Positions 1,886-50,610 of a stretch of 64,000 bases of DNA are shown in pieces. The notes below the pieces were generated by a model. That model ran no database searches and had not been told where the DNA came from. It saw only the letters and a list, made by a program, of their open reading frames with translations. The DNA lies in IMG/VR virus record IMGVR_UViG_3300044614_001341, positions 50,608-114,607 of that record. One strand, written 5' to 3'. The stretch comes from a virus. Numbering within the stretch: position 1 is the stretch's first letter; the number at the start of each line of letters is the position of its first letter. The translations under genes were made by a program, and so were the position numbers.

Positions 1886-3523
1886 TCAATCAAATCTAGA
1901 ACCAAGGTCAGGTCTTTTTCTTGCTTGCTTAGCAGCATATCTGCCTTCACCCTGCTTACTTTCAGGTTTCGCATAAATTCCACCCGGTTGATCTACGTAT
2001 CTACGACTTGATGCACGTCTTTCCTCTTTTGTTCTACCTTCTTTACCTCTGGTATGAGGATTTTGTCCCCCAGAATAAGAAGTTTGTGGGTTGGCAATTC
2101 CACCAATTTTCGTCTTTTGGCGCTGTCTTTGTGCTCCAGTAGAACCAAGTCCTCTCTTTTCTTCTGCTCTTGCTTCATCAACCATTTCACCTTCTAGATC
2201 ATAAGAACACTTAAGACCAATTGCTCTCAGTTTGTTTTTAGCAAGATTCATAGCAGTTGGAATTGAACGGGGATCCATTTCATCCTGTTCTTTCTTTGCT
2301 TTTTTATCTGCCTGAACAACTGTTTCTTCTTTTACTGGTTTCGTTGGTTTTGTTTTTGCACCCCCAAAAATTTTTTGAACATTTTGCGGAAGTTCATCTA
2401 CAAATTTATAAACCGAAGGTGGAACATTGGGAGCACTTCCACCACCTTTTGGTTCTGCTGCTTCTTTAACATGACCAGGAAGATCTTTGTGCTTGGTCTT
2501 TGCAAATTTCTTTGCTTCTTTCTTACTCATTCCTGCTGCTGCTTTTGCAACTTCTGGAGATGCTGGTTTTGCTCCCTTTTTAGCAGCATAAACCATTCCC
2601 ATAAACTTTTGTTGGGCGGTACTTACTGCCTTTTCTGTAATGAAAGGTCCTTCCATTTCATGATGAGCAACTTGCATATAAGAAGTTGAATTTTTTCCAG
2701 TTCCAGGAACTTCTGGATTAATAGTAATAGAATTCTTACCCTTCATCACATCAATTTTCTTTTGATTTGCATCAGGATTTACTTTTTCATCATTTACTTC
2801 GCCAAGAAATGCTTCCGCAACACCCTTTCTTTTACCAATCGCAGTACTTCTAACTTTTCTACGATTCAGAAGATACTTATCAGTCTTATCGTGGTCACCG
2901 TCATTATCAATGTCCTTATCTTCCTTACCAACTGGGTCTAAACCTTTACCTGCCTTTGCTCTTGCAGTTTGCTCACCTTTCTTTTTTTCACCTTCATAAG
3001 GTTCACCATACCCAGTCATTTCGACAGATTGAATGTTTGAATTGGAACGAAGTGCATTAATCTTTTCGCGGTCAGCATATCTTACATATGAACGACCATC
3101 CTTACCCGTAACTCTTACCTTATATTTTCTATGTTCAGAAGCTTCTAACTTTTCCATATATGTTAGAACGATTGGTTCCTCTTCTTTTTGAACCCCCTCT
3201 ACAAATACCATGTAAAGTGCATTTGCTACATTGGATGAAGCAAATTCTTCAATATTAAATTCTTCTGCTTTCATCCCACCTTTACCAAATAATTTCTGCT
3301 TTACCAGAGTTTTCTCTTGTTGACTCATACTACTGTTTGCAATATATTGTGAATATGCTTGTTGAAGAGGTAACTCTTCTCTTCTAGCACGATAACGAAT
3401 ATCATAAATTGCTTGCTTTACTCTTTTTTCTGGAGATTTACCACCAGCTTCCTTTTTATCTCCAGCAGCAGCGGCAGGAGCGTGTTTTCTTGCTGGAAGC
3501 TCTTCAGCAATATGTTTTTTCAT
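1886..3523 (-). CDS. Modular basic/acidic protein, probable internal virion protein
   Basis: 545-aa ORF; modules such as AVSTAQQKFMGMVYAAKKG and DKDIDNDGDHDKTDKYL separated by acidic linkers. Confidence 0.75.
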   Translation of the reverse strand: MKKHIAEELPARKHAPAAAAGDKKEAGGKSPEKRVKQAIYDIRYRARREELPLQQAYSQYIANSSMSQQEKTLVKQKLFGKGGMKAEEFNIEEFASSNVANALYMVFVEGVQKEEEPIVLTYMEKLEASEHRKYKVRVTGKDGRSYVRYADREKINALRSNSNIQSVEMTGYGEPYEGEKKKGEQTARAKAGKGLDPVGKEDKDIDNDGDHDKTDKYLLNRRKVRSTAIGKRKGVAEAFLGEVNDEKVNPDANQKKIDVMKGKNSITINPEVPGTGKNSTSYMQVAHHEMEGPFITEKAVSTAQQKFMGMVYAAKKGAKPASPEVAKAAAGMSKKEAKKFAKTKHKDLPGHVKEAAEPKGGGSAPNVPPSVYKFVDELPQNVQKIFGGAKTKPTKPVKEETVVQADKKAKKEQDEMDPRSIPTAMNLAKNKLRAIGLKCSYDLEGEMVDEARAEEKRGLGSTGAQRQRQKTKIGGIANPQTSYSGGQNPHTRGKEGRTKEERRASSRRYVDQPGGIYAKPESKQGEGRYAAKQARKRPDLGSRFD

Positions 3524-33430: not shown

Positions 33431-33961
33431 TTACCTCTTATTGGGTTTTACTTTTGCTGTTTGCGGATTCTGAGCAGTTTTCACGTAAATTGTTCTTTTT
33501 CCAAAATCACTTGATGTAATTTTTGGATTACCTGAAACATCTCGAGCTGTTTGTAATGCCAAATCGTAGTTTGTTGAACGATTATAATCTCCAGCAGGTC
33601 CAAAATTACCAGTATCGGATACTTTAGTTGTTGCAACAGGTGCTTTTGTCCCTGGTGCCATTGTCATTTGCAGCTTTGTACCAAATGGTGCTGAAGGTTT
33701 AGTACTAGTTCTTGATGCATATGGAACGGCAACTAATCTTTGCTTATCATTAAAACGTTCTCCACTTGCTGTCAATGAACCTGGAGTATCTGCTTTACTA
33801 TAAGAACTGACCTTTACAGGTTTCCAACCATATCTTTTTTGTTCAGTATCACTATGAGATCTTGGTGTAAATTTTCCAGTTTTCTTATCAAGAACTCCTG
33901 GTTTATAGTTTTTATATGCCAAAACTTGAGATTCCGATAAAAACTCTCTAAATGTTTTCAT
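33431..33961 (-). CDS. RlpA-like double-psi beta-barrel protein with a capsid-targeting-like N-terminus
   Basis: SSY...TASGERF...PFGTK...VSDTG.F...YDL; N-terminus MKTFREFLSE. Confidence 0.7.
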   Translation of the reverse strand: MKTFREFLSESQVLAYKNYKPGVLDKKTGKFTPRSHSDTEQKRYGWKPVKVSSYSKADTPGSLTASGERFNDKQRLVAVPYASRTSTKPSAPFGTKLQMTMAPGTKAPVATTKVSDTGNFGPAGDYNRSTNYDLALQTARDVSGNPKITSSDFGKRTIYVKTAQNPQTAKVKPNKR

Positions 33962-34027: not shown

Positions 34028-35428
34028 TCACATCAGGTTAGCAACCTTGACTCTTCTGTAGTAGGTGTTTGCATTGGTGGTCAGAGCACCTGCACCTGGG
34101 TTAAGACCCTCAGCGAATGGGTTTGCAACCATTCCATAACGGGTCTTAAAGCCGATCTTAGGCTGGAAGGTGTTCTCGCCAACTGCACGTACCATCTGGA
34201 GAGGTACATATGGGCAATAGAACAGACCAGCATCATATGGGCTAGAACCCTTATAACCGACAACGTAGAACTGGTTAGCAGATACGTTTGCCGAATATGG
34301 GTCAATGTATACGCGATACTTACCTTGGAGAACACCAGCGAAGGTGTTACCGGTATCATCAACGTTCAGGTTAGCGTTGAGTGCAGGGGTGTAATCGAGA
34401 ACACCAGCCATTGCAAGTGCTGAAGCAACGTCAGCGGAGCAAAGGATAGTGTTGCCCTTTCCTCTACGAGTTTGCTGTGCAATTGCGTTTGCATCGCGCT
34501 CGATTTGGAAGATAAGACCCTTGAACTTCTCAACCGACCAACGACCGTTGGAGTCAACGTCGAGGTCAAAAGTACCAGCGGTAGCGGTATTTACTTGAGC
34601 ACCAGGCTTAGCAATCTTGTAGATGGTTCTGATAACTTCGCGGTTGATCTCAGCAAGAATCTCAGTTGAGAGAATATTTGCGAGTTCAGCCTCAGCATTC
34701 AGACCGTGGATTGCCTTGAGGTCCTGAGCAAGCTCAAGTGAGTACTCAGCCTTGAGGGCGCGTGACTTAGCGGTAACGGTGACTTTCTCAATCGAGAATG
34801 CCATCTGGTTAAACGCATCAGATTCGCCAAGCGATTCTGCGTTGTCAGTTCTCATGCCCTGACCGACGTTGTAGATATCAGCGCCGGTAGCGTTAGCAGT
34901 CTGGTTTGTTGGACTTAGAACTGAAGGGTTGAGACCTTGCTGGGCAGTAGTACCCATACCAACAGCACCACTCGTCCATCCTTCGACTTGATCGAACGAT
35001 GCACTCTGACCAGAGAATGCTGAATCTACTTCGTTGTAGAAGGTTTCAGTTCCAGACTGGTTGGTGTAGCGTGAACGCATTGCGAAGATCAGTCCGGTAG
35101 GACCGTTCATTGGTTGAACGCCACAGAGATCATAGGCGATCAGGTTAGGCATCGAACGACGGATCAGTGAGATCAGTACGGGATCGAAACCTTGCATAGC
35201 GCCGGTGCTACCAGCACTAAATCCAGTACCAGCTCCAGTGCTGGTTCCTGTGCTATTAGTTGGTGACTCATAGAGGAACTCGCGCTCTTCGCGGATGATT
35301 CTCTCTTGGTTTTCGAGCAGGATTGCGGTTACAGCTCTACGATGTGAATCTTTGATAGGATCCAGACCGTCGTAGTCTAGGAGCGGTGCCCACTTCTCCT
35401 GCAATTGCTCGGTATTGAACATTTGCAT
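34028..35428 (-). CDS. gp23: Major capsid protein (gp23)
   Basis: GVQPMNGPTGLIFAMR; KSRALKAEYSLELAQDLKAIHG; FKTRYG. Confidence 0.98.
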   Translation of the reverse strand: MQMFNTEQLQEKWAPLLDYDGLDPIKDSHRRAVTAILLENQERIIREEREFLYESPTNSTGTSTGAGTGFSAGSTGAMQGFDPVLISLIRRSMPNLIAYDLCGVQPMNGPTGLIFAMRSRYTNQSGTETFYNEVDSAFSGQSASFDQVEGWTSGAVGMGTTAQQGLNPSVLSPTNQTANATGADIYNVGQGMRTDNAESLGESDAFNQMAFSIEKVTVTAKSRALKAEYSLELAQDLKAIHGLNAEAELANILSTEILAEINREVIRTIYKIAKPGAQVNTATAGTFDLDVDSNGRWSVEKFKGLIFQIERDANAIAQQTRRGKGNTILCSADVASALAMAGVLDYTPALNANLNVDDTGNTFAGVLQGKYRVYIDPYSANVSANQFYVVGYKGSSPYDAGLFYCPYVPLQMVRAVGENTFQPKIGFKTRYGMVANPFAEGLNPGAGALTTNANTYYRRVKVANLM

Positions 35429-36677: not shown

Positions 36678-37328
36678 TTATAGATTTGAAAGAAACTGTT
36701 GGAACAATTGTACTTTATGTTCCTGAAGAGTCTTTTCATTAACTAAGGTATTAATTCTACGCTTAGTTGACTCGGCAAGTTTTTCGCGAAGAATTCCTCC
36801 TTCCCAAACCCACTCTTTACCTTCCATAATTCCCTGAACAAAAGCATCAGGAGCAGAGGGATCGGCAACGATATCTGCAGCAGTTGCTAGCATAAAATCT
36901 TCACCAACAATTTTATGACCTTCGTTGGTCATCTTGAGTGAACCAACACCACGAGAAGAAACACCAAGACAAACTCCTTCTTTGATTAAAGATTCTGCAA
37001 TCTTACCCATTGGAGTTCCAAGAAGTTGTGCTTTACCGATGAAATTGGTTCCCTTTTGTTCAAGAGAAACAATTTTATGAGAAACACGGTCAAGATTGAC
37101 GGTAGGACCATCAGGATGTCCAAGTTCTCCAAGAGCACGACCCTTAGAAACAAATGCTTCGTTATATCTTTTTACCTCGCGGGCAAGAGTTTGCATAGGA
37201 TACATTCTTCCATTACGATTGCAAATATCACCCTGAAGGAAAACTCCCTCAATATACATTTTCTTTTCAGCACCTTTTCCTTCGGTGATGAATTTTACTT
37301 GTGAGACTTCTTCTGTGATGAGTTTCAT
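36678..37328 (-). CDS. gp21: Prohead protease (gp21)
   Basis: NRNGRMYP; GELGHP; GVSSRGVGS; DIVADPSAPDAFV. Confidence 0.96.
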   Translation of the reverse strand: MKLITEEVSQVKFITEGKGAEKKMYIEGVFLQGDICNRNGRMYPMQTLAREVKRYNEAFVSKGRALGELGHPDGPTVNLDRVSHKIVSLEQKGTNFIGKAQLLGTPMGKIAESLIKEGVCLGVSSRGVGSLKMTNEGHKIVGEDFMLATAADIVADPSAPDAFVQGIMEGKEWVWEGGILREKLAESTKRRINTLVNEKTLQEHKVQLFQQFLSNL

Positions 37329-42610: not shown

Positions 42611-42838
42611 CTACCAATCAGGATATTTCCATTCTGTAGAGTAAATATCTTTTTTTCTATATTCTTCAACTCTTTTTATGGTGCATTCTTTGCACTCATA
42701 TGCATATGATGAAAGAAGTGTATTATTCTTTCTTATTTTATAGAAACCATCTATTAGATTTTTTTTCATTCCACAAACTCTACATTTTCTTTCTGTAAAA
42801 AGTAAATGTTCTACTTCAAACTGTTCCTCCAAATCCAT
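42611..42838 (-). CDS. Small zinc-ribbon protein
   Basis: CRVC...YECKEC; coupled to the gp17 stop (TAATG). Confidence 0.75.
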   Translation of the reverse strand: MDLEEQFEVEHLLFTERKCRVCGMKKNLIDGFYKIRKNNTLLSSYAYECKECTIKRVEEYRKKDIYSTEWKYPDW

Positions 42839-44538
42839 TAGCGATATTCCCACATATAGGATCTGTCGCCATATTCATCCACGTTCCAAACTTCAGTTGA
42901 TTGCATACCATTATCCTTTGTTGCAAGCAACCACCTATCTCCAGTTGATTCTTCAATAAACGTTTCCATGTCGTCTAAACCATCTGATATGAAACCAAAA
43001 GGTGCCATATCTTGTTCAATCTGATTCTTTTGTTCTTCATAAATTCTTTTACGAACATCATTGTCCGTCATTTCTTTGAAATAATCTTGAGCAACTAACC
43101 AAGAGAAAATAACTAAGCACATTGCTAAGTCATCATTACAACCTTCCTCTGCTTCAAAAGAATTATGCTTTTGTGCAAATGTTGTCAATTCGGAAATAAT
43201 ATCGTAGTCAACAGTAAGTAACTTATCATCCTCTAATAGAGTTTTTAAGTTAGAACAACCAAGTTTTTTAACGGCGGCAGTAGTTCTTACCCCAAGTTGA
43301 GATTTTTTACCACTAAAACCTGAACCAACAATTTGACCAGCACGACCTCTCATCGCACACATTAAAACATTATCATACTCAAGATCAAAATGTAGAATAC
43401 TTGCTACTTGGTCTCCAATATCATTAACTTCGATTAATAACCAAGCATCATTGTAACCCTTTGCAACTTCATGAATAATGCTTGGGAATAGCATTGGTTT
43501 AATTTCATTATTTCTATATTTTGCTACAACTTTATATGGAAAGTTCGTAATGTCAAAGACAATGAATGCCGAGTAATCGTTTCCGAGACCACGTGCTACG
43601 TCAACTGTAATTAGATAGTTATGTTCTTCTTTTGGGTGAACATAAACATCCAATCCAGCATTTCTTTTAATTGGATCCTCATATACAAGATTTCTAAGTT
43701 TTGATGGATTAATGAGTGTATTTGTAGAACCCAAAAATTCACATTCAAACTCAACCTTAAACTGTTGCTCACTAGTGTTAGCAATCGTCTGCTCCTTCCA
43801 GGCAGCGTCTCTACCAGGCACTTCGGACCAATGAACATCTGTAGGCACATATTCGTTCTTGCCCCTCTCAGCGTCATGCCACATGCGGTAGAAGTGATTC
43901 ATACCGCGAGGTGTAGAAACAATAATTACCTTTGTGCTTTGACCAGAAGAAATAGTAGGATAAACAGAGGCAAAGAAGTCATCAGCAATGTGATTTGGGA
44001 TGAATGCGAATTCGTCCAAAAAGATGACATTATAGGATCCGCCTCTGACAGCAGATGAAGAAGTAGAGTTTGATGAAATTTTTGATCCATTTTCTAATTC
44101 GAGTGATCCTTTGTTCCAAGATATAATGCCCTGTTGCATCCACTTGGGTAGGTTCTCATAGGCGAGTTGTAATCTCCCAAGCAGATCTCTTGCAGTGGAT
44201 GCTTTGTTCGCTAAGATGGCAATATTGACATTATCGTTAAACACAGCGTAGTGGAGCAGGTAGGATACGCAGGTGGTTGATTTACCAGTCTGTCGTGGCA
44301 TCTTACAAATGTTAAATCTATTCTCGTGGAAGTTTTTTACAAGTTTCTCTTGAAATGGATACATCTCAAAAGGAACAAGACCGTGATCCAGAGAAACGAT
44401 CTTAATATAGTTCTTTGCAAAATATACAGGATCTTCTTTACACTTCAAGAACTCTATAATTTGTTCTTCCGTAAATTGAATTTGTGTATTTGCTCTTTTT
44501 AGTAGAGGATTACCAAGATAGATGTCATTATTTGGCAT
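42838..44538 (-). CDS. gp17: Terminase large subunit (gp17)
   Basis: PRQTGKST; FLDEFAF; VSTPRG; DVARG; DDLAM. Confidence 0.97.
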   Translation of the reverse strand: MPNNDIYLGNPLLKRANTQIQFTEEQIIEFLKCKEDPVYFAKNYIKIVSLDHGLVPFEMYPFQEKLVKNFHENRFNICKMPRQTGKSTTCVSYLLHYAVFNDNVNIAILANKASTARDLLGRLQLAYENLPKWMQQGIISWNKGSLELENGSKISSNSTSSSAVRGGSYNVIFLDEFAFIPNHIADDFFASVYPTISSGQSTKVIIVSTPRGMNHFYRMWHDAERGKNEYVPTDVHWSEVPGRDAAWKEQTIANTSEQQFKVEFECEFLGSTNTLINPSKLRNLVYEDPIKRNAGLDVYVHPKEEHNYLITVDVARGLGNDYSAFIVFDITNFPYKVVAKYRNNEIKPMLFPSIIHEVAKGYNDAWLLIEVNDIGDQVASILHFDLEYDNVLMCAMRGRAGQIVGSGFSGKKSQLGVRTTAAVKKLGCSNLKTLLEDDKLLTVDYDIISELTTFAQKHNSFEAEEGCNDDLAMCLVIFSWLVAQDYFKEMTDNDVRKRIYEEQKNQIEQDMAPFGFISDGLDDMETFIEESTGDRWLLATKDNGMQSTEVWNVDEYGDRSYMWEYR

Positions 44539-44543
44539 AAAAA

Positions 44544-46145
44544 TTACCTACTAATTTCTTCCCAGTCCATAGACCCGTGAATATCTGCACCATTAGAATT
44601 GGAAGAAGCAACGAGAGAAAGTTCATAAGGTGTTCCAGTTAGTGCATCTCTTTCTAACTGAAACTTAAATAATGCCTCTTTAAGAATATCAACTGGTGTT
44701 GAACCTTGATTAGACCCGTACAAATATCCAGATGCTAATATTCTTCCACCAGTATAAGTTCCACCATCAATTTTATATTCCACAGAACTATCAAGACCAG
44801 CATCATTCCAAGTTCCGCCATTAGATGTTCCACTTGCTCTTACTTGCCAGTTATAAGTTGCATTATTTGTAATACCAAGAATAGAAAGTGCAGTCATAAT
44901 TACAATTGCATCCAATCTATTTGGCGTTGCTTTGAGACGAATTGATAAAACAGTATAATAAGTTCCTGCTGTTGTTAAATCAACTGGTGTTTGAATTGGT
45001 GTTCCTACTGCTTGTTGTAATCCACGAAGTTCATAACCACCTTCTGAAATTACAGTGGAACAAACTTGTTTCAGTGTGCTTGCACTCGTTGTAATTCCAG
45101 TATTTGCAATCTCATATCTCAAAGGTAATGATGCTGTTGTGATATAAGTTGTATTGATAAGATTTGCGTGATGAAATGAATGGCAGTGAATGAATTGACC
45201 GTCAATTACAAAACCAACTCTTACAGTTCCAACTCCCAACCACTCAATATCCATCCACATAATCTGTGCTTTGGAAATATCTAATGTGACACCAGATGGA
45301 TTGAGATGCCCAGGTCCAAGCATCGTATCAACATTCCATTCGTGTTGAGATTTTCTAGTTTCTGTTAAAACTCCAGGAACATAAGTTCTTTCTACAAAAT
45401 ATAAAGTATCTCCATTAAGTTCTAGATACATCCCATTGTCTGCACCATAGTATCCTACTCTTTGGCGAAGATTTGCTTTTGCTGAATTCATTACAAATGT
45501 ATTCAATACCTGTAATGATTTTCCCGGTTGATAAGAGAATACTTTTGTAGTTTCTCTAATGACTGATGCGGTACTTCCCACCCCAACAGTCATATTAATC
45601 AAACCTTGTGCTGTTGAAAATCCAACTGTTGAACCAGTACCAACAACTAAACCACTCCAAAGATTATTATCTCTATATCTGTGAGATGAATCAAAGAGAG
45701 TGAGTGGAGTAGACATTCTTTGTCTACCAAATGCATCAGTTGCTATTGGTGGTAATTCAATATCAACTGATCCAGTAATCGGAAATGGATTTGTGGTGCT
45801 GACTGGTGAATTGTTGAGGTTGATTGATACTTGCCCTGTGGTGCCAATACCTACAGTATTCAGTAATGTAGAAATACCGACTGGAAGATACGGAGTTGTT
45901 AATGTTCCACCTGTCCCAACTTCAACTATGTGATTATGAATTGGATTATCTGGAGTGCTTGTAACTGTTACTATTCCTGGAATTGTAATACTACCATTAA
46001 TAGTAATATTGGAACTTCCAAGAGATACTGGAAATGGATTATCAATAGTAACTACTTCGCCATTCTTATTGGCAATCATATTGACTTCAAAAAGGGTTCT
46101 TTCTTGATTCAGAAAGTCCTGGTCATTCTTATTAAATTGTGCCAT
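44544..46145 (-). CDS. Probable virion structural protein
   Basis: 533 aa; DAFGRQRMSTP...YQPGK...WLGVG.VR family; beta-rich. Confidence 0.7.
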   Translation of the reverse strand: MAQFNKNDQDFLNQERTLFEVNMIANKNGEVVTIDNPFPVSLGSSNITINGSITIPGIVTVTSTPDNPIHNHIVEVGTGGTLTTPYLPVGISTLLNTVGIGTTGQVSINLNNSPVSTTNPFPITGSVDIELPPIATDAFGRQRMSTPLTLFDSSHRYRDNNLWSGLVVGTGSTVGFSTAQGLINMTVGVGSTASVIRETTKVFSYQPGKSLQVLNTFVMNSAKANLRQRVGYYGADNGMYLELNGDTLYFVERTYVPGVLTETRKSQHEWNVDTMLGPGHLNPSGVTLDISKAQIMWMDIEWLGVGTVRVGFVIDGQFIHCHSFHHANLINTTYITTASLPLRYEIANTGITTSASTLKQVCSTVISEGGYELRGLQQAVGTPIQTPVDLTTAGTYYTVLSIRLKATPNRLDAIVIMTALSILGITNNATYNWQVRASGTSNGGTWNDAGLDSSVEYKIDGGTYTGGRILASGYLYGSNQGSTPVDILKEALFKFQLERDALTGTPYELSLVASSNSNGADIHGSMDWEEISR

Positions 46146-46148
46146 TAA

Positions 46149-46457
46149 TCATTCACTCCACGATAATCTTTCTGGTCTATATCTTTGTGCGTTTTTGATT
46201 TTTATAGAATTAGATTCTATTGGGTATATATTATGAACAATCGCTCCAGGATATTCTCCTTGTAGTTGTTCTGCAAGTTGATTTTTATCCATCATCTTAC
46301 CTTCAACTTGCATACGATATAATCTCCCCTGCCAAACTACATCTGCAAGGAAAGATTCGCTTGCGGTCTCTGGTTGAGATGAATTCATATAAAGATTTCC
46401 ATTGAAATCTCCTGCAATATTAATGCTTTCGGAAATAAACTGTTGAAATGATTTCAT
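46149..46457 (-). CDS. Small protein with a capsid-targeting-like N-terminus
   Basis: MKSFQQFISE; EQLQGEYPGA motif. Confidence 0.72.
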   Translation of the reverse strand: MKSFQQFISESINIAGDFNGNLYMNSSQPETASESFLADVVWQGRLYRMQVEGKMMDKNQLAEQLQGEYPGAIVHNIYPIESNSIKIKNAQRYRPERLSWSE

Positions 46458-46458
46458 T

Positions 46459-47979
46459 TTAGTTACAGTTCCAACGACGAAGTGCTTTATTGATTCTTGA
46501 ATCTGGATCTCTTGCAGTTTTTGCTGAGGTAAGTTTATCCTTCATCCCAGACATACGACTACAAAAATTTGAACGACGATCTGCCCTTTTTCCTTTTGGG
46601 TTCTTTTCAGTGACTGCAGTTTGTAGTTTTGAACCTGGATTCTCGCGGCGATAAGCATTAACTGCTTTTTGACTTAAACCATCAGTCTTGTCTTGACGAT
46701 TGACTTTTTGCCAATCTTCCGATAATCCAAAATCTTCTCTCCAATTTGAATATTCTTCCGTCTTCATTTCACCACTATCGACATAATCTGCGGCAGCATC
46801 AATATAATCTGCTGCTTTAGTAATTTTTGATTGAACCCACGCTTCAATATTACCTTCACCCTTCATTTTTTTACGAAGTCTCTTTGCTGCCTTAATAATA
46901 GTAGAAAGTTCCGAACGAGCCATTGAATACTCATGGTCATATGACTCTGGGAAATTTCCAGGATGAACCGTAGCAATATTATACTTTAATTGATTGGTTG
47001 TAAGTGTCGATGGAATTGAGAACATATCCCAATACTTTGGTCCATACTTACACTCATCACGAGTTTCGTCTTTTTGACACTTGGGGCAGTATCTAATCAT
47101 TGTTTGCTCCTCTTTTACTGGTACGCAATTTGGGACAATTTTTTTACCTTTCTTTTTCATACCCTCTTGCTTATAACCATCCCAACAATCTTCCAATTTT
47201 GTGCCCCAGTTATCGGCACCAACTTTACGACATTTAACAAGTGCTCCAGATGCATATGCACTTGGCCAAACATCATATCTTGACTTTACCTTGTGGTAGC
47301 AAGCATCTTTTTTACCGCTACCTTTGCCTGGTTTGTCTTTGACTTCTTGTAAATGCATTTCTTCAGTTCTTACGTTTGTTGGTTTAGTGCCACCAGTTTT
47401 TTCTGGTTGATTTGGATCTAAACGATTTTTTCTTCTTCTTGCAGATTCTTCTTCGTCTTTAGATAACACCCTCTTCATTTTAGAACTTCCGCATTTTGGT
47501 GTAGAAGTTTGACCTGGTTGGCGAGCACAAGGTTTTCCTGCCCATTTACCACCTAATTGAACCCATCCTTTTTTATCATCAGAGGACTTTGATTTATTAA
47601 ACCAATCATGAAGACCTTCATCGCCAGATGTAGTTTCTTCTTTTACATCTTTAAATTTTTTATGATGCTTTTTAGCATCTGTTTCCATTTTTTTGAGGCG
47701 AGTATAATAATCTGGAATTTCGTCCAAATGTTGAAGGGCGATTTCTTTAGCAAGTTCATGATTTTTGGTATGCTCATGTTCAATAGGTTCCCCCATATCC
47801 AATTGCTTTTGGATGAAAGAAACATCCATACGATGCTTCTTAGCAATTTGCTCAACGGTTTTAAATGATTTCAATTGCTCTTTCAATTTCTCTTTACGAC
47901 CCTGGCAGTGAGCTTTTTGTGAAAATCCTTTTGGATTGTCGCAGTCAATAGATTTTTTATATTTGTCTGACCAACCCAT
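46459..47979 (-). CDS. Multi-module basic, Cys-pair-rich protein (candidate polyprotein)
   Basis: About 8 unrelated short modules joined by acidic xxE linkers; between gp16 and gp17. Confidence 0.75.
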   Translation of the reverse strand: MGWSDKYKKSIDCDNPKGFSQKAHCQGRKEKLKEQLKSFKTVEQIAKKHRMDVSFIQKQLDMGEPIEHEHTKNHELAKEIALQHLDEIPDYYTRLKKMETDAKKHHKKFKDVKEETTSGDEGLHDWFNKSKSSDDKKGWVQLGGKWAGKPCARQPGQTSTPKCGSSKMKRVLSKDEEESARRRKNRLDPNQPEKTGGTKPTNVRTEEMHLQEVKDKPGKGSGKKDACYHKVKSRYDVWPSAYASGALVKCRKVGADNWGTKLEDCWDGYKQEGMKKKGKKIVPNCVPVKEEQTMIRYCPKCQKDETRDECKYGPKYWDMFSIPSTLTTNQLKYNIATVHPGNFPESYDHEYSMARSELSTIIKAAKRLRKKMKGEGNIEAWVQSKITKAADYIDAAADYVDSGEMKTEEYSNWREDFGLSEDWQKVNRQDKTDGLSQKAVNAYRRENPGSKLQTAVTEKNPKGKRADRRSNFCSRMSGMKDKLTSAKTARDPDSRINKALRRWNCN

Positions 47980-47992
47980 TAGGAGATTAAAA

Positions 47993-48415
47993 TTACTCTT
48001 TATTATTTAGAAAACCTTGCTTGAGTAGTTTAGAAAGTTCGGATGTGGAACCAACAAATACGGCATTGTTGGTAACATTGTTTGTTGTTTTTGCAGTGTC
48101 CTCTTCAACATCCTTAAGTTTCTTTTGCAAATCAATAAGTTTATCTGTCACATCACCAACGCTTTTAATTAATTGACCAGCAACTTCATATGCTCTAGGC
48201 GAATCACTTTCGCCGGCAAGTTCCATAATTCCATTGATAGCTTCCTGACCCTTTTCTATCAAAGAATAAAGATTTGCACGGGTGTATTCATAGTCCTTTT
48301 TAATATCTTGACCTTGAATTGGTACGACTTCTAATTTATTTTCGGTCTTTTCTACCTCAACAATTTTACTTTCAATGTTGAGGGCATTATCTAGACCATC
48401 ATAATTATTTTTCAT
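47993..48415 (-). CDS. gp16: Terminase small subunit (gp16)
   Basis: DYEYTRANL...SPRAYEV...FVGSTSEL. Confidence 0.93.
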   Translation of the reverse strand: MKNNYDGLDNALNIESKIVEVEKTENKLEVVPIQGQDIKKDYEYTRANLYSLIEKGQEAINGIMELAGESDSPRAYEVAGQLIKSVGDVTDKLIDLQKKLKDVEEDTAKTTNNVTNNAVFVGSTSELSKLLKQGFLNNKE

Positions 48416-48421
48416 AAGATA

Positions 48422-49219
48422 TTAAATGTCAGTTTGTTGTGTAGGACTATAAGTCTTAGAGTCATCAAAAGATAACCACTCTTCATCAAACCCAAAATTA
48501 TCATCTGGTGCAGCATCATAAGGATCTGGTTGGGCAGTATATCTCATCTCTCTCTTTGCAGTTTGCCTATTTGTATCACTATACATATCAACTTGAACCT
48601 TACGGATCAGACCATCAGTTGTTTCTGCTACAGGTCCAAATAGATATGTTTTAACTGTAAAGTTAAAAGTGTAAATTAAAATTCTTCTTGTCGAAAAATC
48701 ACCCTCATAATCATCAACGAACGAAACATTATCTAATACAATAGGTATATCTCGTTTTTCACCAATAGAATCGATAAGATCGACTGTAAGATTGAATGAT
48801 GGTTGAAAATAAGGAAGGATTTGTTCTGTTACCTGCAAGGCATCATCTTGAAGTTTTGTCATCAAATTTAGTTGAAAACCTATATTATATGGTACAGGTA
48901 GAAAAACTTTTTTCAAATTAGAACCATCACAAGCTCTAAATGTTTGAGTTATATTTGCCTTTCTTGTTGGATCATACTGAATGGAGTTCATCTCAAATGA
49001 TAATCTAGGCAATGTCATTGCAATTGGTTTATTTAATTCTGGTTGTTGCTCTATCCTCGCAAGAAATTTTTGAATTGGACCATATGCCAATGGAACTTTC
49101 ATTTCATTGATACTATCACCACTTGAGTCTTTATGCCTGACATAAATGTCATTAAACAGTGTGCCAAAGGCAATCACTGTTCTTCTAATAATTTCGTGAT
49201 AGTAATAAGTTCCTAGCAT
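48422..49219 (-). CDS. gp15: Tail sheath stabiliser/completion protein (gp15)
   Basis: FGTLFN; VPLAYGP; LPRLSFE; EQILPYFQP. Confidence 0.95.
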   Translation of the reverse strand: MLGTYYYHEIIRRTVIAFGTLFNDIYVRHKDSSGDSINEMKVPLAYGPIQKFLARIEQQPELNKPIAMTLPRLSFEMNSIQYDPTRKANITQTFRACDGSNLKKVFLPVPYNIGFQLNLMTKLQDDALQVTEQILPYFQPSFNLTVDLIDSIGEKRDIPIVLDNVSFVDDYEGDFSTRRILIYTFNFTVKTYLFGPVAETTDGLIRKVQVDMYSDTNRQTAKREMRYTAQPDPYDAAPDDNFGFDEEWLSFDDSKTYSPTQQTDI

Positions 49220-50610
49220 TAAAATATACCAAATGGATTAGACTCTGAGAAATCTATAATGCCGTCAGCCGCATTTTCAATTTCTATATTTTCACTATAT
49301 TTATCATATTGATCCCAAGAATCAAAAGAACTGAGAGAATATATGGCACTAGATGCTGCACCAACAATAAGTTCACCACCATAAAAACCTTTTGTTGCTG
49401 CATTATCAACTAAAGAAACTTTGAGAATCTTGGTATCATAATCCCAAGATTTAACACGTGCCCTAGTTCCAGATTGAGAACCAACCACTTCTTCATTAAA
49501 TTGATATGTACCAATTCCAGATAAAATTGATGGTGCTGCAATTGTAACAGTTGGGGATACAGTATAACCAACACCAGAATTGATAATCCTAATTGAAGAA
49601 ATAGTTTGACCAGAACCAACTACAGCAAGTCCTATAGAGGTTTGACCAGTTCCAACTGAACCTGTAATGGTAACAGTTGGTGATGTAACGTATCCACTTC
49701 CAGGAGAAGTTACTGTAAACCTAGTAACTCCACTTCTAGAGGTTTCAATTGCACAAGTTACCGCTGCACCAGATCCTCCACCACCAACTATTGTAATTGT
49801 TGGGGCAACAGTGTATCCTGCACCGGCATTAATTAATACAATAGACTCAATTGAATAAACACCTGCTCTATTTGTTGTAATAGCAACTGCTGCAGCATTA
49901 GTTCCACCAGATGGTGCTGTTGAAATTGCAACAGTTGGTGACGAAGTGTAGTCGTAACCATCATTGTTTAAGTATATTTCTCTAATATAACCAGTATTAA
50001 TAAAAGCAGTTGCGGATGCTGTTGAACCAGTTCCAATCAATTGTAGAGTTGTAATGTATCCCTGATCTTCAATTTGAGTATCAATTTCTTGAATAGAAGT
50101 ATCAATAACTTCATCTTCATATTCAAATAATTCACACTTTAATTCATAAACATATAATTTTCCAAGTTGATAAAAGTTTACTTCATGTTCAACAAACTTA
50201 ACTTCAAATATTCTTTGACCCAAAGGAAAATATATTAAATCTCCTTCTCTCGGTCTAGATGAAAGAACAATTTCATTGTCATTTTCTCCTTCTAAAAATG
50301 GAGAGATGAAATCTTCAAACCTTTCTTTTGAAATGATTAAACTTAATTCATCTCTTAAACTCATTCCAAATTTTGTGAGAATATCTCCTTGCCCACCATA
50401 ACCATCAAAACTATTAACATATGCTTCAATAGCAAAATTATCATCAAATTTTGATGATTGTATTTCTTTAATAATAGTTTGCTTTCTTACAAATTTTCTT
50501 GGAATGTAGATGACATCTACACCATAAATTTTTAACTGTTCATTAATTAAATCTTGTATAAGTCTTTGTTCTCCTGGAGAACCTTGTAAGAAAAAGGGAT
50601 TGAGAGACAT
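49219..50610 (-). CDS. gp14: Neck protein (gp14) with an inserted GxGY repeat region
   Basis: YGVDVIYIPR; RPREGDLIYFP; FYQLGK; DFSESNPFG. Confidence 0.93.
   Translation of the reverse strand: MSLNPFFLQGSPGEQRLIQDLINEQLKIYGVDVIYIPRKFVRKQTIIKEIQSSKFDDNFAIEAYVNSFDGYGGQGDILTKFGMSLRDELSLIISKERFEDFISPFLEGENDNEIVLSSRPREGDLIYFPLGQRIFEVKFVEHEVNFYQLGKLYVYELKCELFEYEDEVIDTSIQEIDTQIEDQGYITTLQLIGTGSTASATAFINTGYIREIYLNNDGYDYTSSPTVAISTAPSGGTNAAAVAITTNRAGVYSIESIVLINAGAGYTVAPTITIVGGGGSGAAVTCAIETSRSGVTRFTVTSPGSGYVTSPTVTITGSVGTGQTSIGLAVVGSGQTISSIRIINSGVGYTVSPTVTIAAPSILSGIGTYQFNEEVVGSQSGTRARVKSWDYDTKILKVSLVDNAATKGFYGGELIVGAASSAIYSLSSFDSWDQYDKYSENIEIENAADGIIDFSESNPFGIF

Follow-up and report, generated by a model that had tools for sequence, protein, structure and literature searches.

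What does a T4-like cyanomyovirus make from the variable gene lying between the genes for its two terminase subunits? This question is raised by a 64,000-nucleotide (nt) stretch of viral DNA (positions 50,608 to 114,607 of IMG/VR record IMGVR_UViG_3300044614_001341), hereafter called the window, in which an open reading frame (ORF) at 46459-47979 on the minus strand is found between gp16 (small subunit) and gp17 (large subunit). Its ATG start lies 13 nt past the gp16 stop, and the encoded protein, here called the target, has 506 amino acids (aa), a mass of 58 kDa, 106 Lys and Arg against 75 Asp and Glu, a net charge of +31 and an isoelectric point (pI) of 9.4. Comparison with its homologues suggests, with a probability of about 0.6, that the target is a precursor packaged into the prohead and cut by the prohead protease gp21 into products of 3-11 kDa.

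Modules and their rearrangement among homologues

The target can be divided into eight small modules, M1 to M8 (Table 1), six of which carry a Cys pair or triple. In fact, its 13 Cys residues fall into five pairs (13/25, 151/163, 227/250, 265/285 and 473/505) and one triple (298/301/310), and the CPKC..EC motif of M6, together with a conserved HP, is a probable metal site. Six of the eight predicted pieces have a pI of 8.8-10.6, the remaining two having values of 6.8 and 5.2. When single modules were compared with Pfam, only M4 gave a match, to DUF5872 and below the cut-off (E=0.038), and a search of the ESM Atlas with M8 returned no informative named cluster (scores <0.9).

The order of the modules was examined by mapping nine pieces of the target (M1, residues 1-31; M2, 35-111; M3, 118-170; its basic tail, 171-214; M4, 215-262; M5, 263-290; M6, 291-340; M7, 345-415; M8, 419-506) on 269 homologues with phmmer. 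As many as 104 different orders were observed, and many homologues consisted of one to three modules only. M5 shifts its position among homologues, M7 can come after M1 and M8 is nearly always last; M3 and its basic tail are never separated, and M6 and M7 usually occur together. As far as sequence comparison can tell, the modules are therefore independent evolutionary units, found in 104 orders and also alone.

A conserved motif at the module junctions

The module boundaries of the target were named LKE32-34, VKE112-114, LQE210-212, KLE261-263, VKE288-290, FPE343-345 and LSE419-421. Since gp21 of T4 cuts after L/I-x-E (PMC9026906), LKE, LQE and LSE are canonical sites, the two VKE sites have V at P3, and KLE and FPE are non-canonical. 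Among 417 linkers of 151 representative homologues, hydrophobic-x-E was found 278 times, against 121 +/- 8.5 in shuffles preserving the composition of each linker (2.3-fold; z=18.6, a score inflated by the counting of related sequences), and hydrophobic-x-E followed by A/G/S/E/D was found 199 times against 47 (4.3-fold). The corresponding ratios for the controls were 1.7 for hydrophobic-x-D, 0.87 for hydrophobic-x-K and 0.77 for hydrophobic-x-Q, and, with another order or spacing, 1.4 for E-x-hydrophobic, 0.63 for hydrophobic-E and 1.5 for hydrophobic-x-x-E. In the module cores the motif was depleted, with a ratio of 0.61 for hydrophobic-x-E and of 0.14 when A/G/S/E/D followed.

Because of the kinship of the sequences, junctions were also counted by junction type, defined as an ordered module pair with at least 3 distinct linkers (n=27). 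Hydrophobic-x-E was present in the majority of distinct linkers at 23 of the 27 types and in every linker at 17; for M2-M3, it occurred in 98% of 44 distinct linkers. The exceptions were M3-tail (2%), which is not a true junction, M7-M3 (47%), M4-M6 and M6-M7. Additionally, the motif was located within 9 residues upstream of the first conserved residue of the module in 93% of 240 distinct contexts for M8, 85% of 152 for M5 and 85% for M3, with weaker values for M2 (69%), M6 (52%), M7 (50%) and M4 (37%), against a background of 12.9% of 9-residue windows in the same proteins. In collinear homologues, a hydrophobic P3 and a P1 Glu were conserved in 100 and 99% of cases at VKE112 (81 aligned homologues, P3 always being V), 98 and 97% at LQE210, 83 and 100% at VKE288, 96 and 97% at LSE419, and 74 and 69% at LKE32. 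In these alignments, then, a hydrophobic-x-Glu in the same register as T4 gp21 sites is conserved at the module boundaries.

An earlier sequence-only reading had described the ORF as small basic, mostly Cys-paired modules separated by gp21-type sites, most of them matching [ILV]-x-E. The ORF and all the motifs quoted were recovered. Six of the eight modules carry Cys pairs or a triple, and six are basic, all but M6 and M7; the motif fits five of the seven named boundaries, with KLE (Lys at P3) and FPE (Phe at P3) departing from it and two further copies lying inside modules. The occurrence of modules in different orders or alone in other phages, which that reading had proposed to look for, was found both in the rearranged homologues and in stand-alone M8 genes, and the gp21-type sites between modules are supported by the conserved motif and by an S77 protease gene in the window. 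The inference of that reading, that one gene yields many mini-proteins upon head maturation, is thereby supported in part, and the roles it suggested for them, in DNA condensation or as host-directed effectors, are putative.

Junctions coincide with the ends of capsid-targeting sequences

The capsid-targeting sequence of T4 is MKTYQEFIAE (bioRxiv 10.1101/2021.01.19.427310); in this 10-residue tag, positions 4 and 7 govern targeting and positions 8 and 10 processing, and the latter are the two positions retained at the junctions of the target family. Asp in place of the final Glu prevents processing in T4 and leaves targeting intact. A tag of this type (MKTLNNFIQE, MINLKEFLNE, MINFKTFITE or MKTLKDFISE) was found directly before DWQKVNRQDK in stand-alone DUF6321 genes that encode 94-95 aa and share about 90% identity with M8, so that the final Glu of the tag occupies the same column as that of the target junction ..FGLSE/DWQKVNRQDK (a slash marks the putative cut). 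Two-module genes read tag-M5-VKE/M8, longer homologues contain internal tag-like strings of the form K[ST]FxxF[MIV]xE/A before a module, and P-SSM7_194, a member of the same family, starts with MKTYSQFIEE. The contigs bearing the tagged stand-alone genes are fragmentary (21-36% complete, for genomes estimated at about 170 kb), and an S77 protease was present on one of the five examined.

The same boundary is used when a module comes first in its gene, the start Met of the first-placed module taking the position of the P1 Glu of internal copies. M1 begins M-GWSDKYKK in the target and is preceded elsewhere by VKE/GWSDKYKK, VDE/GWSEKYKK or VSE/AWSAKYKK, with hydrophobic-x-E in 15 of 16 internal contexts; stand-alone copies of M3 begin M-[AN]-x-KSGD at the shared boundary, and M2 behaves likewise. 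In the aligned stand-alone copies, the module boundary of the target is the cleavage end of a T4-type capsid-targeting sequence. Within the target itself, the string closest to an internal tag, LKSFKTVEQ, was considered and rejected, since it is the conserved start of DUF5661.

A further recurrent element, [YF]S[ND]WRx[DE][LF]..E/, is found at target residues 407-421, in S-SCSM1_29 and in many other homologues. It precedes different modules (M8 in the target, M5 in S-SCSM1), and there may thus be two kinds of mobile junction or targeting element, this one and the classical tag.

Family membership and presence in virions

The target belongs to phrog_727 (E=3.2e-112) and matches DUF5661 at residues 43-100 (E=7.6e-14; 52.2 bits, cut-off 27) and DUF6321 at residues 429-503 (E=4.4e-13; 50.1 bits, cut-off 28.5). 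At E<=0.001, more than 8,000 clusters formed at 90% identity are related to it, and 12,599 of those formed at 50% identity. Among isolates, Synechococcus phage S-SRM01 (Kyanoviridae) is the nearest, with a 609-aa homologue that shares 70% of its residues with the target. The family is T4-GC119 of Sullivan et al. 2010 (SSM1_115, PSSM2_123 and PSSM7_194), which is absent from S-PM2 and T4 and was classified as a structural protein with 13 peptides in S-SM1 virions (Sullivan et al. 2010, Supplementary Table 8). Additionally, 7 virion peptides were obtained by mass spectrometry (MS) for S-CREM2 ORF160 (128342-129235), which overlaps a tblastn match of the target. By MS, the S-SM1 and S-CREM2 homologues are thus virion proteins. 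The S-SCSM1 homologue, SSCSM1_29, is annotated as 'virion protein' in a phage whose virion proteome was determined by MS; in the supplement of that proteome, per-ORF data for ORF29 were not found. So far, the family has been annotated as hypothetical or structural protein only, and a literature search on DUF6321/DUF5661 and on cyanophage capsid-targeting sequences or processing returned nothing on the processing or modular make-up of the family.

Predicted structure

AlphaFold with a 131-sequence alignment gave a model of moderate confidence, with a predicted template modelling (TM) score of 0.26 and a mean predicted local distance difference test (pLDDT) of 57.5; the model obtained without an alignment was poor (pLDDT 43.8). 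Stretches with pLDDT <50 (residues 109-123, 188-224, 257-264, 288-293, 326-358 and 398-421) contain six of the seven junction sites, which are therefore probably exposed to a protease. A search of PDB chains with the target sequence returned nothing, as did Foldseek with the alignment-based model against the PDB at E<=0.001. Against BFVD, Foldseek retrieved only members of the family itself; their identity was 34-36% and yet their TM scores were 0.1-0.14, as would fit floppy chains. The alignment-based model is consistent with a target that lacks a fixed overall fold.

Proposed processing and alternative explanations

In the favoured reading, the 58-kDa precursor would resemble beads on a string, short flexible linkers connecting its eight small modules, of which six bear a Cys pair or triple. 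It would be incorporated into the prohead, where gp21, a protease of family S77, would cut after the Glu of hydrophobic-x-Glu at most junctions, and six to eight mostly basic products of 3-11 kDa would stay in the head with the DNA, like the internal proteins of T4. The firmest cuts would be those at VKE114, LQE212, VKE290 and LSE421, those at LKE34, KLE263 and FPE345 being less sure; it is because of the uncertainty at residues 34, 263 and 345 that the number of products may vary from six to eight. Cleavage, a location in the head interior, entry without an N-terminal targeting sequence and a function as DNA-associated and/or ejected proteins are what we infer for the target. The products are probably DNA-associated head contents, because of the analogy with the basic T4 internal proteins and of the capsid-gene neighbourhood of the podovirus copies described below, and their ejection into the host is a speculation.

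Several observations weigh against this reading. The virion proteomes of S-SM1, S-SCSM1 and S-CREM2 report peptides and give neither fragment sizes nor termini, and Syn9 gp114, which a sequence search identifies as a homologue of the target, is encoded by that phage and went undetected in its virions (Sullivan et al. 2010, Supplementary Table 8). The target starts with MGWSDKYKK and lacks a targeting sequence at its N-terminus, nor is one clearly present inside it, and the favoured reading does not explain how it would then enter the prohead; the S-SM1 and S-SCSM1 copies also lack an N-terminal targeting sequence and are nevertheless located in the virion. V and M at P3 fall outside the L/I rule of T4. 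At KLE261 the Glu is 96% conserved and P3 is Lys, which makes cleavage there doubtful; a hydrophobic P3 is mostly lacking at M4-M6 (29% with the motif, mostly K-S-E) and at M6-M7 (36%, mostly N-E-E), and since M6 and M7 are also usually joined, the cut at FPE345 is uncertain. LKE32-34 lies in a confident helix running on into M2, so M1 and M2 may stay joined. Two copies of [ILV]xE lie inside modules, LDE85-87 in M2 (within a helix, local pLDDT about 75) and VTE456-458 in M8, and these conserved internal copies show that the presence of the motif is not enough to define a cut. The target contains 7 copies of [ILV]xE against 4.4 +/- 1.9 in composition shuffles (P=0.14), which is no excess; the argument is therefore not carried by the single sequence, and the excess lies in the placement of the sites among homologues, for which the kinship noted above has to be kept in mind. 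Finally, the motif at the junctions might be left over from the fusion of genes that carried tags.

Many of these points would also be expected if the target stayed whole, as a flexible multi-domain virion protein with metal- or disulfide-stabilised domains and charged linkers, in which hydrophobic-x-Glu would act as a domain cap or persist as a relic of fusion. No cleavage has been observed, the target has no N-terminal targeting sequence, some junctions depart from the canonical P3, conserved motif copies occur inside M2 and M8, LKE34 is in a predicted helix, and the 13 peptides of S-SM1 came from a gel-slice workflow that would favour large proteins over pieces of 3-10 kDa. However, a relic would not have stayed 85-100% conserved over 23 junction types with the remainder of the tag lost, the motif is depleted inside modules and placed in linkers that are probably open to a protease, and the T4 protease does cut exposed L/I-x-E in head-core proteins. 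An uncut protein is for these reasons considered unlikely. Limited processing, in which one or two junctions (for instance that before the DUF6321 module) would be cut to give a few larger pieces, agrees with the uneven strength of the motif (93% before M8, 85% before M5 and M3, 37-52% before M6, M7 and M4) and with the behaviour of M3 plus its tail, M6-M7 and perhaps M1-M2 as units. Nevertheless, at least four target junctions (VKE114, LQE212, VKE290 and LSE421) combine strongly conserved P3 and P1 residues with low-pLDDT linkers, and cutting at so few sites seems somewhat improbable.

The target might also act outside the head interior, as a cytoplasmic nucleic-acid-binding or regulatory protein or as an external or tail accessory protein, and its protease-like sites would then be coincidental. 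The many non-structural genes of the gp16-gp17 hypervariable region and the failure to detect Syn9 gp114 in virions could be read in this way. Against it stand the virion homologues of S-SM1 and S-CREM2 and the S-SCSM1 copy annotated as a virion protein, the T4-type capsid-targeting sequences on homologues and on the adjoining 102-aa gene, and the podovirus copies adjoining the capsid gene, so that a role of this kind appears very improbable.

Comparison with known head proteins

A close parallel to the proposed precursor is offered by IPI, IPII and IPIII of T4, which are small, highly basic, packaged in the prohead and freed by gp21 after the L/I-x-E that ends a 10-residue tag. Stand-alone and short members of the target family carry a nearly identical tag, and the products predicted for the target are likewise small and mostly basic. 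However, the mature parts share no sequence similarity, and V or M is frequent at P3 in the target family. Each T4 internal protein is cut once, beside its tag; the target lacks a tag at its N-terminus and would be processed at several junctions within the chain. In phiKZ-like jumbo phages (SPN3US, 201phi2-1), many head-internal proteins are cut after Glu by a prohead protease related to T4 gp21. The motif of that protease is small residue-x-Glu, unlike the hydrophobic-x-Glu of the target, the processed proteins belong to families unrelated to it, and we know of no cassette-like polyprotein of mini-domains reported in those phages.

A precursor with several gp21-type sites is not new in itself, since gp21 processes T4 gp22, gp67 and gp68 at several L/I-x-E sites each, yielding multiple fragments (PMC9026906). 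They differ from the target in being scaffold or core proteins whose fragments mostly leave the head, and not strings of independently folding, shuffled Cys modules; moreover, the window phage encodes its own gp22, separate from the target. The sequence-only reading had regarded the polyprotein strategy as little described in tailed phages, a view that has to be qualified in the light of these multi-fragment precedents and of the jumbo-phage head proteins.

Genomic neighbourhood and podovirus copies

The contig from which the window is taken has 114.6 kb and an estimated completeness of 56%, and no further T4-GC119 or phrog_727 copies occur elsewhere on it. In cyanomyoviruses, the interval from gp16 to gp17 is known as a hypervariable hot-spot (PMC3037559). 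The position of the target beside gp16 is matched in S-SRM01, Syn9, S-SM1, S-RSM4 and many IMG/VR contigs; the order gp13-14-15-16-target-orf102-orf533-gp17 recurs in dozens of IMG/VR contigs, and S-B43 and S-SCSM1 have the order target homologue-orf102-orf533-terL in common with the window. Past gp17, the minus strand continues with gp18, gp19, gp20, a DUF7243 gene, gp21, gp22 and gp23 (Table 1), so that the target forms part of a head and neck gene cluster of T4 type. The gp23 protein of the window phage contains FLYE/S at residues 51-54, an in-genome instance of a gp21-type site. Its propeptide probably ends there, as judged from where the Pfam Gp23 domain begins and from the propeptide site of T4 gp23.

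Table 1. Positions of the target, its modules and other features; coordinates refer to the window, except in the last two rows, which refer to the loci of the phages named.
Feature	Position	Strand	Remarks
gp15	48422-49219	minus	
gp16, terminase small subunit	47993-48415	minus	
Target, candidate head polyprotein, 506 aa	46459-47979	minus	phrog_727, E=3e-112; DUF5661 and DUF6321 above cut-off
M1, residues 1-34 (GWSDKYKKSIDC..HC, Cys13/Cys25)	47878-47979	minus	ends LKE/Q; 4.0 kDa, pI 9.3
M2, residues 35-114, helical DUF5661 (EHEH, ALQHLDEIPDYY)	47638-47877	minus	ends KFKDVKE/E; 9.6 kDa, pI 8.8
M3 and basic tail, residues 115-212 (ETTSGDEGLHDWF.., Cys151/Cys163)	47344-47637	minus	ends HLQE/V; 11.0 kDa, pI 9.4
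M4, residues 213-263 (DACYHKVKSRYDVWPSAYASG, Cys227/Cys250)	47191-47343	minus	ends TKLE/D; 5.6 kDa, pI 9.7
M5, residues 264-290 (CWDGY..VPNC, Cys265/Cys285)	47110-47190	minus	ends PVKE/E; 3.1 kDa, pI 9.1
M6, residues 291-345 (CPKC..EC and conserved HP)	46945-47109	minus	ends NFPE/S; 6.5 kDa, pI 6.8
M7, residues 346-421, acidic helical (HEYSMAR..WVQSKI)	46717-46944	minus	ends SNWREDFGLSE/D; 8.7 kDa, pI 5.2
Recurrent pre-junction element	46717-46760	minus	target residues 407-421
M8, residues 422-506, DUF6321 (DWQKVNRQDK..RRWNC, Cys473/Cys505)	46462-46716	minus	9.8 kDa, pI 10.6
102-aa partner gene, phrog_1742	46149-46457	minus	N-terminus MKSFQQFISE/S, T4-type capsid-targeting sequence
533-aa 'virion structural protein', phrog_1645	44544-46145	minus	between the 102-aa gene and gp17
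gp17, terminase large subunit	42838-44538	minus	
gp21 prohead protease, proposed processing enzyme	36678-37328	minus	Peptidase_S77, PF03420, E=3.2e-36
gp23 major capsid protein	34028-35428	minus	
176-aa ORF adjoining gp23	33431-33961	minus	starts MKTFREFLSE/S
437-aa cytidylyltransferase, phrog_395, PF01467	3533-4846	minus	starts MKSFFQFITE/A
Tiny, very basic genes after major capsid gene, P-SCSP1q	2959-3377		
Tiny, very basic genes after major capsid gene, HTVC103P	2852-3270		

Three ORFs of the window bear a tag, namely the 102-aa neighbour of the target, the 176-aa ORF near gp23 and the 437-aa cytidylyltransferase. The tag of the 102-aa gene is conserved in S-SRM01, S-B43 and S-SCSM1, the gene is syntenic with the target in many IMG/VR contigs, and its product is probably a small head-internal protein. 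For the 176-aa ORF, neither Pfam (E<=0.01) nor PHROG (E<=0.001) gave a match. The cytidylyltransferase belongs to T4-GC190, a family of non-structural enzymes that was detected by MS in the virions of S-SM1 and S-CREM2; a tag, MKKFSAFLTE, likewise stands at the N-terminus of the P-SSM7 copy. The tag, observed in the window and P-SSM7 copies, may account for the packaging of this enzyme, whose virion detection concerns the S-SM1 and S-CREM2 copies. On the whole, the capsid-targeting tag appears to work in cyanophages. Synteny of the 533-aa gene extends to many contigs, and in S-SCSM1 the annotation of its homologue is that of a virion protein.

Outside the T4-like phages, DUF6321 genes were found in two marine podoviruses, P-SCSP1q (Autographiviridae) and Pelagibacter phage HTVC103P, in both cases directly after the major capsid gene and with no tag. 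The absence of the tag in these podoviruses (n=2) fits a processing signal specific to T4-type assembly. At the same place, P-SCSP1q also encodes a 58-aa KKKGLYANIHAKRKR-type protein resembling a module of P-SSM7_194. The tiny basic podovirus genes may encode head-internal proteins; a prohead protease is assumed to be absent from these phages, with no search for one made.

Implications for cyanophage heads

The target gene family and the T4 system of tag and gp21 processing are each known already, separately; for this family, the searchable literature yielded no proposal of a polyprotein whose modules are shuffled, delimited by protease sites and related to single-module genes bearing tags. 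In its widest and more tentative form, held at somewhat less than even odds, the proposal is that marine T4-like phages carry a combinatorial cassette system, in which dozens of Cys-stapled mini-protein modules, bounded by prohead-protease sites, would be exchanged among genes and phages, expressed singly behind a tag or as polyproteins, and released in the capsid at maturation. In this way, one variable gene would supply the head with mini-proteins, DNA-associated or injected, in a set that can change.

The family is huge, and some of the phages that carry it rank among the most abundant in the ocean. If true, the proposed processing would explain the extreme variation in length and order of the target gene in the gp16-gp17 hot-spot, would extend T4 targeting and gp21 cleavage to cyanophages, and would account for the cytidylyltransferase in their virions. 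It would also reveal small capsid-internal proteins of a new class, whose stand-alone relatives lie beside the capsid gene of podoviruses, and would give annotators a simple rule by which the mature products could be predicted.

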